A stretch of 24,000 nucleotides of DNA from Neisseriales bacterium. Lineage in GTDB: Bacteria; Pseudomonadota; Gammaproteobacteria; Burkholderiales; UBA11063. The translations under genes were made by a program, and so were the position numbers. The notes under the pieces are model-generated. The model did not search any database. It saw only the letters and a program-made list of their open reading frames with translations, and was not told the origin of the DNA. The stretch is taken from contig SSGX01000003.1 of NCBI GenBank assembly GCA_008017155.1, positions 1-24,000 on the forward strand, in the 5' to 3' direction. Positions 16,265-16,628 of the stretch are shown piece by piece (position 1 is the stretch's first letter; each line of letters opens with the position of its first letter).

Positions 16265-16628
16265 CATATTTATTTTCGCATAACAAGCGTAATCCTGCAT
16301 TTAATCGATTGAAACATAGCATTAATCAACTATCAAGGGTAAAGTGCACAAAGCCAAAAAATACGGCTTGGCAGATATTCAAGAAAAATAGCCAGATTTT
16401 TAGATCTGGCTATTTTTGTGCCTGCGCTAAAAAACTTTTTAATGATTTTTACCCAAAGGGAACCCAAAAATCAAAAAACTTTTTTATATTTTTTGTCTTT
16501 GCCCTTGATTGTTGCAACCATCCAAGTATCTCTAATGTCCTGCTATCGCCGGACATAAGAGCTACTAAGAGGTTAATTGCTATGTTGTCAATACGGCATG
16601 CAGGATTAGCTCTGCGAAAAAAAATATA
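16265..16628. promoter_or_regulatory. Long imperfect inverted repeat; candidate Frpo/ssi-like single-strand DNA promoter
   Basis: Hand-aligned complementary blocks:
- ttttcgca 16273-16280 with tgcgaaaa 16613-16620
- taatcctgcat 16290-16300 with atgcaggatta 16598-16608
- cgattgaaacatagcattaa 16306-16325 with ttaattgctatgttgtcaatacg 16573-16595
- caactatcaaggg 16327-16339 with cccttgattgttg 16502-16514

There is a perfect 14-bp sub-hairpin in the interior, nearer the left arm (16384-16397 with 16404-16417). Confidence 0.35.

Follow-up and report, generated by a model that had tools for sequence, protein, structure and literature searches.

The window, that is, the whole stretch of 24,000 nucleotides that was analysed, contains a long imperfect hairpin followed along the + strand by a small open reading frame of 52 aa, a J-domain gene, a DUF4942 methylase gene, a DUF29 gene, a TrbI-like gene, intergenic inverted repeats, an RHH gene, a 92-aa gene, and TraD; in the parent contig, these last three precede a relaxase of 921 aa of the TrwC (MOBF) type on the same strand. 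Judged by these genes, the element carrying the hairpin is a MOBF conjugative element. The hairpin lies upstream of, and co-oriented with, leading-type genes that point toward oriT along the direction of the relaxase operon, and in plasmid F the Frpo, the leading genes, and the tra genes are oriented to one another as their counterparts are here. The DUF4942/YdiA methylases are among the families enriched in leading regions (Samuel et al., 2024), and homologues of the J-domain gene are found in 2,723 plasmid records, 2,204 of them conjugative. The hairpin and the J-domain gene are regarded as a module, since the latter is the sole gene common to the sister loci. The features downstream of the hairpin are:

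16656-16672, + strand: small leader hairpin AAGGGGAT/TATCCCCTT, preceded by CTGGCAG, with covarying stems in both subfamilies of sister loci
16721-16732, + strand: boxA-like sequence GTTCTTTAACAA in the leader, kept in every long-leader sister locus
16822-16980, + strand: small hydrophobic ORF of 52 aa, first gene after the hairpin
16988-17009, + strand: terminator-like hairpin with a T-rich tail just ahead of the J-domain gene, with covariation in sister loci
17032-17550, + strand: J-domain gene
17607-19205, + strand: DUF4942 methyltransferase gene (YdiA/YgfB type), of a family enriched in leading regions
21026-21048, - strand: candidate nick region, an inverted repeat CTACC-TTCA-GGTAG (CTACCTTCAGGTAG), then GTCGGTGT and, across the candidate nick, GAAACC

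Folded as single-stranded DNA, positions 16266-16627 form one long imperfect hairpin of 362 nt with a G+C content of 35%. The original prediction had described four collinear complementary blocks between two arms, and all of these are present and paired in the minimum-energy fold of the - strand. The bulge of about 58 nt that it placed in the right arm, with a hairpin of its own, corresponds to a side hairpin at 16516-16574 (23 bp, ATGTCC/GGACAT included), and the perfect 14-bp interior hairpin at 16384-16417 is likewise found. The parts of the structure, all on the - strand, are:

16266-16627, - strand (presumed T-strand): whole imperfect hairpin, a branched rod of ~141 bp in the DNA fold
16598-16627, - strand: 5' (template) arm of the base stem, paired with 16266-16300 over 6+8+4+11 bp
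16266-16300, - strand: 3' (non-template) arm of the base stem in the fold
16301-16305, - strand: unpaired ATTAA in the 3' arm, an internal loop across from GC (16596-16597) in the fold
16308-16313, - strand: putative -10-like hexamer TTCAAT, base-paired, with single-base bulges on the template arm
16331-16336, - strand: -35-like hexamer TTGATA within the conserved stem CCCTTGAT/ATCAAGGG
16334-16349, - strand: hallmark motif GTGCACTTTACCCTTG, including the bulge GTGCACTTTA, 9-10 nt unpaired immediately upstream of the -35 stem
16366-16427, - strand: apical hairpin in the fold, including the perfect 14-bp stem 16384-16417
16428-16486, - strand: AT-rich hairpin in the fold, two AAAAAGTTTTT(T) copies paired across a G.G mismatch
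16502-16514, - strand: template-arm partner of the -35 stem, CAACAATCAAGGG, running on into GGGCAAAG, the latter matching GGGGGCAAGA of F ssiD
16516-16574, - strand: side hairpin of 59 nt, branching off the template arm inside the putative promoter spacer (three-way junction)
16627-16622 with 16271-16266: pairing of 6 bp
16620-16613 with 16280-16273: pairing of 8 bp
16612-16609 with 16288-16285: pairing of 4 bp
16608-16598 with 16300-16290: pairing of 11 bp, perfect
16595-16578 with 16321-16306: pairing of 2+5+9 bp
16514-16502 with 16339-16327: pairing of 4+8 bp
16501-16487 with 16363-16349: pairing of 5+9 bp

The DNA fold of 16255-16640 has an energy of -93.0 kcal/mol on the - strand, as against -38.1 +/- 4.4 kcal/mol for shuffled sequences (z = -12.6; 0 of 100 shuffles as good), and the same region reaches -82.5 kcal/mol on the + strand (z = -11.1 against shuffles), so that in the comparison with shuffled controls that had been proposed the hairpin is far better on both strands. 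By the same folding method, F Frpo2 gives -72 kcal/mol (z = -5.3). In a local-fold scan of the 24 kb, the hairpin is the unique outlier, with -103.6 against -55.8 kcal/mol for the runner-up (450-nt structures). The 106-aa ORF on the + strand (16309-16629) had been suspected of being an artefact of the hairpin, which is borne out by the lack of a Pfam match and by its absence from homologous hairpins; an indel in a 97.8%-identical variant (L021) shortens it to 66 aa. A 76-nt repeat (15756-15831 and about 19325-19400; TTTACCCCTTGG motif) was also considered as a second, smaller single-strand promoter and was rejected, having no significant fold.

About 20 sister loci have a hairpin in the corresponding position, ahead of their J-domain gene. 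In most of those with enough upstream sequence, the structure spans 280-440 nt and has an energy of -55 to -114 kcal/mol, the most stable being that of L027 (-114 kcal/mol), whereas neighbouring segments reach only about -20 to -45 kcal/mol; the z-scores range from -3.5 to -18 in 19 of 22 rows. These hairpins were obtained by local folding, and folding of 1 kb as one molecule gave misleading outer helices. Local folding detects no strong hairpin at the J-domain loci L006, L010, and L036. An IncU Klebsiella plasmid also shows none, but with ~100 nt ahead of its J-domain gene it is uninformative. The blastn comparison of the hairpin with 19 genome loci yields weak fragments only, and lineages sharing under 60-70% identity keep the hairpin pairing through compensatory substitutions. 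Such changes, which the original prediction had proposed to seek in relatives, occur in both subfamilies at counts reached by 0 of 500 shuffles. Across the 102 pairs of subfamily B, 97% of cells are paired and 17 pairs are double-changed, compared with 9.0 +/- 1.8 after shuffling (0/500) and 0-2 when the partner is slid. For subfamily A, a plain MAFFT alignment is of good structural quality in two helices only, and the column-by-column score covers the spacer and -35 helices rather than the base stem; in these helices, 12 of 18 pairs are double-changed (6.5 +/- 1.5 shuffled, 0/500; 2-6 slid). The unpaired motifs of the hairpin are conserved in sequence among the sister loci, and the window, like each motif-bearing locus, has a single copy of the core motif, with constant position and strand. 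The side hairpin is present in eight of nine subfamily-A members, and its sequence is not conserved. Subfamily B has a bulged TAATAAT/TATAAT and no recognisable -35 box, and the promoter anatomy is therefore not uniform across the hairpin family.

The hexamer pair claimed for the - strand reads as claimed, with TTGATA (16336-16331), 17 nt, and TTCAAT (16313-16308). The CAAGGG/CCCTTG of the -35 stem is invariant in the nine sequences of subfamily A, and the TTG of the -35 box is kept by most A/C-type members read, the exceptions being L013 (TTT) and L039 (TAG). The candidate -10 box TTCAAT is weak, with T instead of the consensus A at position 2, and is not strictly conserved (TTCAAT, TGCAAT, TGTAAT, or CATACT in the sister loci); a sigma-70 consensus scan does not call it as a -10 box. 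The ATTAA loop, situated between the putative -10 box and start site, is a candidate for a pre-melted region, and the sister hairpins have an equivalent loop, (T)TTTA ahead of GT(C/A)AG. The unpaired ATTAAAT/TTTAGT loop was tried as the true -10 box and dropped, as its distance to the -35 box would be 26 nt; it is more likely a start-site bubble. The start would be placed as follows:

16593-16600 (about 16598), + strand: predicted transcription start window on the template arm, ~7 nt beyond the -10 box

The RNA 5' end is predicted near AUGCAGGAUUAGC, and the template arm at this point carries a conserved motif, (T)ACGCCG (ATGCCGT in the window). Recognition by the polymerase is likewise an inference, as are the -10 box and a start at about 16598.

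Masai and Arai reportedly described, in 1997, single-strand DNA promoters of the ssi type in F and ColIb-P9. Frpo1 (ssiD) and Frpo2 of F and ssi1-3 of ColIb-P9 are class-1 single-strand promoters (PMC9849209; PMC12672017). Like these, the window hairpin lies upstream of leading genes and on their template strand, and consists of at least 300 nt with a -35-like box in the 3' arm directed to the hairpin base. The motif order is also common to both, namely GGGCA(A/G)A, AAAAGTTTT, apical loop, AAAAAGTTTT, bulged GTGCAYTTYA, and CCC(C)T(T/G)G. The hallmark motif is shared with F ssiD (GTGCATTTCACCCCTGG), with Frpo3 of ColIb-P9, and with two published candidates, Frpo'4 and Frpo*5, and in known Frpo/ssi elements the CAAAAGTTTTTG ... 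CAAAAAGTTTTG arms are the counterpart of the AT-rich hairpin at 16428-16486. Pairing past the -35 stem is irregular both in the window (bulges and an internal loop in the fold) and in F (judged by eye from the published sequence). An HMM built from six published Frpo/ssi cores has its two best window matches at 16504-16447 and 16360-16326 on the - strand, collinear and inside the hairpin, although each is individually non-significant (E = 0.6 and 0.8, nhmmer); nhmmer searches in both directions (family against F; known Frpo against the window) gave E = 0.5-0.8 and serve for location and collinearity, not significance. A 16-mer of the sister locus L027 matches the -35 site of F Frpo1 with two mismatches (0.01 expected).

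Several differences are also apparent. The BLASTN search for related plasmid sequences that had been suggested, with 15600-17100 against PLSDB (72,556 plasmids), returned no match, and the hairpin has no similarity to F or ColIb Frpo/ssi at the BLAST level (E <= 1e-6) by which Samuel et al. define homology; unlike the visibly GC-rich F and ColIb elements, it has only 35% G+C. Two parts of the window hairpin are additional, namely the side hairpin that the template arm carries in the spacer, which F and ColIb Frpo lack, and the perfect 14-bp apical hairpin, which is missing from known Frpo elements, and the pairing of the AAAAAGTTTTT copies across a G.G mismatch is likewise unlike F/ColIb Frpo. 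The host clades differ as well, being uncultured Neisseriaceae/Burkholderiales-type bacteria for the window and Enterobacteriaceae for F/ColIb. The same core as in the window is seen in Frpo'4 from an insect-gut metagenome (GTTCACTTTACCCTTGCAT) and in Frpo*5 from Salmonella (AGACAAAAAGTTTTTG...GCAAAAAGTTTTTGG...GTTCATTTCACCCCTTGG), which, like the window hairpin, are predictions from fold and -35/-10 boxes (Samuel et al., 2024). The Frpo'/Frpo* candidates are GC-rich and lie in enterobacterial-type islands upstream of anti-defence or ssb genes, whereas the window family is linked to the J-domain gene and differs in its side hairpin and boxA leader. From the shared motifs, the hairpin is most likely a very diverged, AT-rich relative of the F-plasmid Frpo, with kinship at the motif level.

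Frpo and unrelated hairpins act as single-strand promoters with mapped start sites (PMC9849209, PMC12672017, PMC11541004). The class 2 (ardA/klcA) and class 3 (M.EcoGIX) promoters of pESBL and F follow the same concept (Wen et al., 2025, PMC12672017), being large stem-loops, unrelated in sequence, upstream of leading operons, with rebuilt -35/-10 boxes and mapped starts, one of which leads into a methylase operon (PMC12672017). The window hairpin probably belongs to neither class, because the class-1 motifs are present, and its likeness to those classes is one of concept.

The - strand is the more stable in every homologue, by 4-18 kcal/mol, where shuffled baselines differ by 0.1-5.2 kcal/mol, and the consensus fold of subfamily B gives -79.0 on the - strand versus -55.5 on the + strand. 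In L021, a substitution at 16317, within a predicted pair, produces G.T on the - strand and C.A on the +, and one at 16568, also in a predicted pair, converts a G.T pair to C-G; in subfamily A, the few G.T pairs do not settle which strand folds, and the energy differences and the subfamily B consensus are more informative. The - strand is taken as the T-strand, and as the template of the + strand genes, by analogy, because the TraD/TrwC (MOBF) order matches that of F and R388. The candidate nick at 21026-21048 presumably resembles the nic sites of F and R388, with an inverted repeat, 8-9 nt, and GTGT/G (the slash marking the nick). A blastn comparison of the oriT region with the sister loci, which could have lent this candidate support from conservation, found no detectable similarity.

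The boxA-like sequence GTTCTTTAACAA is the sole match in the window (0.06 expected), and it fits the boxA consensus within the predicted transcribed leader of the hairpin. It is identical to the rrnB boxA GCTCTTTAACAA at 11 of 12 positions, and its first nine bases are those of a functional L. pneumophila boxA GTTCTTTAAAA. Like the rrn-type boxA of rRNA operons and of CRISPR array leaders, it is placed in leader sequence that is not translated, here ~120 nt past the predicted start. All long-leader sister loci have a boxA-like sequence 75-125 nt downstream of the hairpin, and in sister loci a conserved hairpin stands ahead of it. A sequence search of the leading region of F found no boxA, unlike in the window, and in the literature searched none is reported downstream of a single-strand promoter or in a leading region. 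The presence of + sense RNA signals in the leader (boxA and hairpins with U.G pairs) argues that transcription passes outward from the hairpin, and the boxA-like sequence may have an anti-termination function in this leader; the one indirect indication of terminator read-through is the conserved terminator-like hairpin that stands between it and the J-domain gene. A mini-ORF at 16642 (MPLAVRGLSP) was considered and rejected as coding, as the conservation there is that of a covarying hairpin.

Taken together, the MOBF setting, the leading-type genes, the covariation, the stability of the - strand, and the class-1 motifs in order support the original prediction of a single-strand-specific (Frpo/ssi-type) promoter of a MOBF-element leading region, to which we assign a probability of about 0.75. 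Starting at a nick near 21.03 kb, the - strand would enter the recipient in the 5' to 3' direction, and the segment from 16627 to 16266 would arrive about 4.4-4.8 kb after the nick, its 5' template arm (16598-16627) ahead of the rest. The segment would then fold into a branched rod of ~140 bp, a rebuilt duplex promoter in which the 3' arm supplies the non-template strand (bulge GTGCACTTTA, -35 TTGATA, 17 nt, -10 TTCAAT, unpaired ATTAA) and the 5' arm the template. Host sigma-70 RNA polymerase may bind here, with bulges and the internal loop near -10/+1 aiding opening, and transcription would run from about 16598 out through the hairpin base, that is, through the template arm, before a complementary strand exists. 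The transcript would cover, in this order, the boxA-like leader, the 52-aa ORF, the J-domain gene, the DUF4942 methylase gene, and beyond, and the same RNA may prime complementary-strand synthesis, which would in turn abolish the hairpin and switch the promoter off. More tentatively, and with the odds somewhat against it, the single-strand promoter may be coupled to an rRNA-type (boxA/Nus-factor) anti-termination leader, with the side hairpin splitting a mirror-image promoter in double-stranded DNA.

The minus-strand origin of filamentous phages and the ssoA and ssoU origins of rolling-circle plasmids are hairpin promoters for sigma-70 RNA polymerase, whose RNA primes the complementary strand; they share with the window hairpin a folded single strand that mimics a promoter, but make a short primer with no downstream genes. 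Along these lines, the hairpin could be mainly a complementary-strand priming site (ssi/sso type) or a roadblock that delays conversion, which is compatible with the promoter reading but as the main role is unlikely. For an AT-rich sequence it is extremely stable (-93 kcal/mol in the window, -114 in L027), and there are precedents, as Frpo transcripts act as primers for DNA synthesis in vitro and the ssp2 stem-loop of F stalls conversion until UvrD resolves it (PMC7690428; bioRxiv 10.64898/2026.01.09.698686). The conserved, correctly oriented TTG of the -35 box, the Frpo hallmark motif, and the tight linkage of the hairpin to the downstream J-domain gene as a module nevertheless favour a promoter, and leader RNA signals such as boxA would be purposeless for a short primer.

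A structured RNA, either an antisense or non-coding RNA of the - strand or, in + strand read-through from the tra operon, a structure serving as 5'-UTR, in processing, or in attenuation, would also account for folds far better than shuffles on both strands, covariation is blind to RNA versus DNA, and a sigma-70-like site (TTGTTA-18-TAGAAT, - strand, 16286-16257) lies at the left base. This explanation is nonetheless very unlikely: the + strand is disfavoured in every homologue, no left-facing promoter is found right of the hairpin and no terminator left of it, both of which a gene for a - strand RNA would require, Rfam 15 has no match over the whole window at the gathering threshold (chance-level matches only at E <= 5), and the motif kinship is with elements that work as DNA. 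Equally improbable is an ordinary double-strand regulatory region, in which the palindrome would provide operators for a dimeric repressor of a conventional leading-gene promoter. Leading genes do need silencing in established plasmids, and L013 has a fair + strand promoter (TTGACT-17-TATTTA) inside its own hairpin. In the window, however, a scan of 16000-17032 found no convincing double-strand sigma-70 promoter facing the genes, the + strand has its mirror-image -35 and -10 boxes ~75 nt apart because the side hairpin sits between them, and the covarying pairing of the arms extends over 360 nt, far more than the size of any operator. The least probable explanation is a passive inverted repeat without a transfer role (a MITE-like insertion, recombination product, or relic), since, although long intergenic inverted repeats are common by-products of mobile elements and some J-domain loci have no hairpin, the hairpin occurs once per locus at a constant place and orientation relative to the J-domain gene, has no extra copies in the window or parent contig where a MITE would have multiple dispersed ones with terminal inverted repeats, and combines pairing maintained by compensatory substitutions with sequence-conserved unpaired motifs.

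Single-strand promoters determine which genes, among them anti-defence, anti-SOS, and methylase genes, a conjugative element expresses during its first minutes inside a new host, and have so far been found mainly through BLAST similarity to a few enterobacterial sequences. On the single-strand promoter reading, the class-1 Frpo design extends to AT-rich elements of uncultured beta-proteobacterial-type hosts, where a few short motifs are preserved (bulged GTGCAYTTYA, CCCTTG, the paired AAAAGTTTT arms, and GGGCAAA). Together with the fold, these motifs offer a search key independent of homology, and they indicate which bases are probably required by RNA polymerase. New here are the side hairpin of 59 nt that branches from the template arm and, in the leader, the conserved boxA-like sequence at 16721-16732. 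If the coupling to boxA is real, transcripts launched from single-stranded DNA would resist Rho and the intrinsic terminator before the J-domain gene, an undescribed layer of control over early 'zygotic' expression; if the side hairpin splits the double-strand promoter, the correct geometry would arise only in the folded T-strand. Should both be functional, the boxA leader and the side hairpin would represent two testable design principles for expression restricted to the single strand.

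The imperfect hairpin upstream of the leading-type genes is probably (at odds of about three to one) a sigma-70 promoter of the Frpo type, functional only in single-stranded DNA. The collinear complementary blocks at 16265-16628 that the original prediction had described were recovered by a repeat finder with the sequence as described, together with the small hairpin in the bulge of the right arm and the perfect 14-bp one at 16384-16417. The expectation that the fold would exceed shuffled controls was also borne out: as ssDNA, the - strand of 16255-16640 reaches -93.0 kcal/mol vs -38.1 ± 4.4 in dinucleotide shuffles (z = -12.6; equalled in 0/100), and the + strand reaches -82.5 kcal/mol (z = -11.1). 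When both strands of the whole window were scanned by local folding (span ≤ 450 nt), the region ranked first, at -103.6 vs -55.8 for the next best. The minimum-energy structure is a branched rod:

16598-16627 with 16266-16300, - strand fold: base stem, 29 bp
16305-16301, - strand fold: internal loop ATTAA, facing GC 16597-16596
16578-16595 with 16306-16321, - strand fold: 'spacer' stem, 16 bp
16516-16574, - strand fold: three-way junction with a 59-nt side hairpin off the 5' (template) arm
16487-16514 with 16327-16363: upper stem, 26 bp, with CCCTTGAT/ATCAAGGG and a 9-nt bulge TGCACTTTA
16428-16486 and 16366-16427, - strand fold: two apical hairpins

The 106-aa ORF that fills the hairpin is an artefact, as had been suspected; it has no Pfam match and no counterpart in the homologous hairpins, and in a variant of this element with 97.8% identity an indel leaves only a 66-aa fragment.

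All substantial ORFs of the window are on the + strand, arranged around the hairpin and a presumed oriT:

Upstream of the hairpin, +: F-type mating-pair genes (TraN-like ORF, SLT transglycosylase, TraW)
Downstream, +, in order: 52-aa ORF, J-domain protein, DUF4942 methyltransferase, DUF29, TrbI-like protein
After the TrbI-like gene: 560-nt intergenic region, rich in inverted repeats
Past this region, +: 150-aa protein, 92-aa protein, TraD/TrwB coupling protein
21048-21021, - strand: candidate nick, CTACC-TTCA-GGTAG, then GTCGGTGT|GAAACC

The cysteine-rich ORF upstream of the hairpin is read as TraN-like from its translation, and the 150-aa protein (21125-21577), which has no Pfam match, is read as ribbon-helix-helix-like. 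In the parent contigs, retrieved via an exact-match look-up of the coupling protein, a 921-aa TrwC-family (MOBF) relaxase directly follows the coupling protein, and is followed by SSB, Fic, and ParA. The F plasmid has the same layout, with Frpo2 with ssb and psiB, Frpo1 and genes, oriT, and traM onward on one strand. In MOBF systems such as F and R388 the relaxase operon is the last to enter, so that, by analogy, the - strand would be the transferred strand (T-strand) here, led by its 5' end from a nick slightly to the left of 21.1 kb; the architecture of the candidate nick is presumably like that of the F and R388 nic regions. Of 2,723 plasmid records with a homologue of the J-domain protein, 2,204 are conjugative, and the gene families enriched in leading regions include DUF4942 methylases (YdiA/YgfB) (Samuel et al., 2024). 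The presumed oriT region also holds imperfect hairpins at 20731-20852 and 20567-20625, one with 50-nt arms of 74% complementarity and the other with perfect 11-bp arms around CGGTGGAT/ATCCACCG. A perfect 22-bp palindrome (ATATGGCTATA|TATAGCCATAT, 21091-21112) and a tandem TATATGCCA x2 (21142-21159) lie where the 150-aa gene starts and resemble operators or sites for relaxosome accessory proteins. Strong terminator-like hairpins lie at 16121-16177, ~90 nt left of the big hairpin and ~500 nt past the TraW stop, and at 19215-19250 after the methylase gene, the latter perfect and bidirectional.

Searches with the J-domain protein yielded sister loci, 19 from genomes (titled mostly Neisseriaceae or Burkholderiales metagenome-assembled genomes) and 20 from metagenomes, across which this protein is 65-87% identical. 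Its gene is the sole gene common to the window and the sister loci; L009, for example, is flanked by a coupling-protein-like gene, AbiEii, and a type I restriction-modification system, and L027 by ParA, a resolvase, and TraU. Most loci with enough sequence 5' of the J-domain gene carry, just ahead of it, a structure that spans 280-440 nt and folds at -55 to -114 kcal/mol (z-scores -3.5 to -18), with neighbouring segments at only about -20 to -45 kcal/mol, and the hairpin and the J-domain gene thus behave as a module. Subfamily A (window-like) comprises the window, L021, L025, L027, L002, L013, L015, L016, and L039, with a shorter variant in L034 and L041, and subfamily B (L003, L028, L004, L008, L009, L011, L012, L017, L032, L038, and L042) has its hairpin in the same place 5' of the J-domain gene (e.g., L009 5538-5858, - strand). 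No strong hairpin was found in L006, L010, or L036. A -63 kcal/mol hairpin also lies ~300 nt 5' of a distant J-domain homologue (35% identity) in Acinetobacter schindleri (L018 5405-5705) and a metagenome contig (L044 448-749), and holds CCATTTAAACCTGGGTG, recalling CATTTACCCTGGAC of F Frpo2.

The predicted hexamer pair is present on the 3' (non-template) arm, and putative boxes can be read in sister loci as well:

16336-16331, - strand, 3' arm: putative -35 box TTGATA, followed after 17 nt by putative -10 box TTCAAT at 16313-16308
Sister loci: -35 TTGACT, -10 CATACT
Sister loci: -35 TTGATT, -10 CATACT
Sister loci: -35 TTGCTG, -10 TTCAAT
Sister loci: -35 TTGCAA, -10 TGCAAT
Sister loci: -35 TAGCAA, -10 TGTAAT
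Sister loci: -35 TTGACA, -10 TGAAAT

The TTG of the putative -35 box is well kept across sister loci; in the putative -10 hexamer, positions 4 (A, except in L013) and 6 (T) are retained, and the A of position 2 is not. Between this hexamer and the base stem, every member has a short internal loop, (T)TTTA or, in the window, ATTAA, faced on the template arm by a conserved (T)ACGCCG. Given the -10 box at 16313-16308, transcription is predicted to start ~7 nt further, around + 16598; a consensus scan of 16000-17032 found no good double-strand promoter pointing at the genes. Within the spacer, the template arm branches into the 59-nt side hairpin, which is present, without sequence conservation, in 8/9 subfamily-A members and absent from F and ColIb. 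On the + strand of dsDNA, the mirror boxes TTGATT (16505-16510) and GTCAAT (16586-16591) stand ~75 nt apart, so that the right 17-nt spacing arises only in the folded - strand, and we infer that this restriction is the purpose of the side hairpin. The L013 hairpin (5638-5918) is without a side hairpin, its + strand mirror image reads TTGACT-17-TATTTA, and it might also be a double-strand promoter. No recognisable -35 box was found in subfamily B, where a conserved bulge, 7-8 nt long and reading (T)TAATAATG on the 3' arm (TTATAATG in L003 and L028), looks like a pre-melted -10 element, and the promoter logic may differ from that of the window type; the bulge can also be given as TAATAATG or TATAATG.

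Past the hairpin, a small leader hairpin at 16656-16672 (+) has covarying stems in both subfamilies and is followed by a boxA-like GTTCTTTAACAA (16721-16732, +), which matches rrnB boxA GCTCTTTAACAA at 11/12 positions and whose first nine bases are those of the functionally tested Legionella boxA. The pattern occurs once in the window vs 0.06 expected and was not found in the F leading region. As G(T/C)TCTTT(A/T)ACAA, it recurs 75-125 nt beyond the hairpin in the untranslated leader of all sister loci with a long leader, with one stray match elsewhere:

L002: 5659-5670
L015: 5668-5679
L016: 1549-1560
L025: 1068-1079
L026: 114-125
L027: 2683-2694
L039: 1424-1435

In sister loci, a covarying hairpin GCGCU-CGUU-GGCGC, with a U.G pair in the + sense, lies 5' of boxA; the window copy of this type is degenerate. 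Between the leader and the J-domain gene, the 52-aa ORF (16822-16980, +) encodes a conserved 50-57-aa hydrophobic small protein with equivalents in L027, L025, L002, L015, and L039 and only a weak Pfam match (Phage_T4_Y07D), and a terminator-like hairpin conserved by covariation (16988-17009) separates it from the J-domain gene. These leader features indicate that + sense RNA is made across the leader, and Nus-factor anti-termination of the early transcript leaving the hairpin is suggested; no report linking boxA with leading regions was found in the searchable literature. A role of the hairpin as a priming or roadblock element only, while not exclusive of the promoter reading, is unlikely, as a primer-only role is opposed by boxA and the covarying hairpins of the leader RNA. 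A further conserved element, GCGGT(A/G)G(C/T)GC, lies 50-60 nt 5' of the J-domain start in 23 loci (e.g., L009 5942-5951 and L041 2944-2953), including loci without the big hairpin and not including the window; as a lead only, it presumably resembles the ops pause/RfaH-loading element (GGCGGTAGCGTG).

BLASTN similarity, one of two proposed checks on related sequences, was almost absent between the hairpin and the 19 genome loci, but the other, compensatory change, was found in both subfamilies. Subfamily B aligns well (consensus of 102 pairs, 97.2% of cells paired), with 17 pairs changed on both sides vs 9.0 ± 1.8 in column shuffles (0/500) and 0-2 once the partner is slid. In subfamily A, covariation was scored on the two helices that MAFFT aligned reliably, the spacer and -35 stems, where 12/18 pairs changed on both sides vs 6.5 ± 1.5 (0/500; 2-6 when slid) and six CAAGGG/CCCTTG pairs show no variation or almost none. 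The - strand fold is the more stable one in every homologue, with a margin of 4-18 kcal/mol, whereas the gap between the strands after shuffling is only 0.1-5.2 kcal/mol; the subfamily B consensus fold gives -79.0 (- strand) and -55.5 (+ strand) with RNA parameters, and -45.3 and -27.5 with DNA parameters. Several - strand G.T pairs are invariant in the subfamily B analysis, and two substitutions in the near-identical variant L021 fall at predicted pairs of the window fold, where the change at 16317 keeps G.T on the - strand (C.A on the + strand) and that at 16568 replaces a G.T pair of the - strand by C-G. Strand bias and the G.T pattern thus identify the template strand of the downstream genes as the strand under selection. 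That the hairpin acts as a structured RNA is very improbable; a + strand RNA is opposed by these covariation and strand-bias results.

Sequences of ColIb-P9 Frpo1-3, F ssiD, and the authors' own candidates are available (Supplementary file 4 of Samuel et al., 2024). The known Frpo/ssi T-strand motifs run in the order GTCCGGGGGCA(A)GA, CGCAAAA(G/C/T)(A)TTTT, apical loop, GGC(A/T)AAAA(G/T)TTTTG, unpaired GT(G/A)CAT(T/C)TC(A), and CCC(C)TGGAC; the order in the window corresponds, with ATCAAGGGCAAAGA, CAAAAAATATAAAAAAGTTTTTTG, an apical domain, TTAAAAAGTTTTTTAGCG, an extra 14-bp hairpin, unpaired GTGCACTTTA, and CCCTTGATAG. The L027 16-mer GTACATTTCACCCTTG has one match, with 2 mismatches, in 14 kb of F leading region (0.01 expected), and this coincides with the -35 site of Frpo1, on the same strand as Frpo. 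An HMM built from six published Frpo/ssi cores only and run against the whole window gave its best two matches at 16360-16326 (model 87-122) and 16504-16447 (model 48-85), with E = 0.6-0.8 each; both lie on the - strand within the hairpin and keep the order of the model. The motif CAYTTYACCCTWK occurs in 8/45 loci (seven of subfamily A and the duplicate L023), once per carrying locus and always within the hairpin on the same strand, and the published candidates Frpo'4 (GTTCACTTTACCCTTGCAT) and Frpo*5 have the same core as the window hairpin. By the BLAST-based membership criterion of the literature the window hairpin falls outside Frpo/ssi; from the motifs, we conclude that it is a very diverged class-1 member, or at least has the same recognition core. 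This kinship argues against a function unrelated to single-strand promoters, and an ordinary operator/promoter region has little probability. A 76-nt repeat (89% identical; intergenic 15756-15831 and about 19325-19400), reading ..TTTACCCC(T/G)TGGGGGCTCATCGCCGCCCCCA..GGATTTATTGACAAAGTAG on the - strand with a 6-bp G/C hairpin and TTGACA, also resembles the Frpo -35 motif, with no large fold around its copies (z = -2.9, -1.5).

A passive inverted repeat is the least credible reading, being opposed by covariation and strand bias. As a single-strand promoter of the Frpo type, the hairpin would be on while the T-strand is single-stranded, would be silenced by complementary-strand synthesis, and would drive expression from the 52-aa ORF through the J-domain and methylase genes and past them; like Frpo, it may also have a priming role. 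Leading-region single-strand promoters are already well known: several classes unrelated in sequence have proved functional (PMC9849209, PMC12672017), and candidates are catalogued by the thousand (PMC11541004), so that the window hairpin adds a very distant new member, not a new kind. What is new is the survival of a short motif core across such distance, the template-arm side hairpin, the putative boxA leader, and the tight modular link between the hairpin and the J-domain gene.
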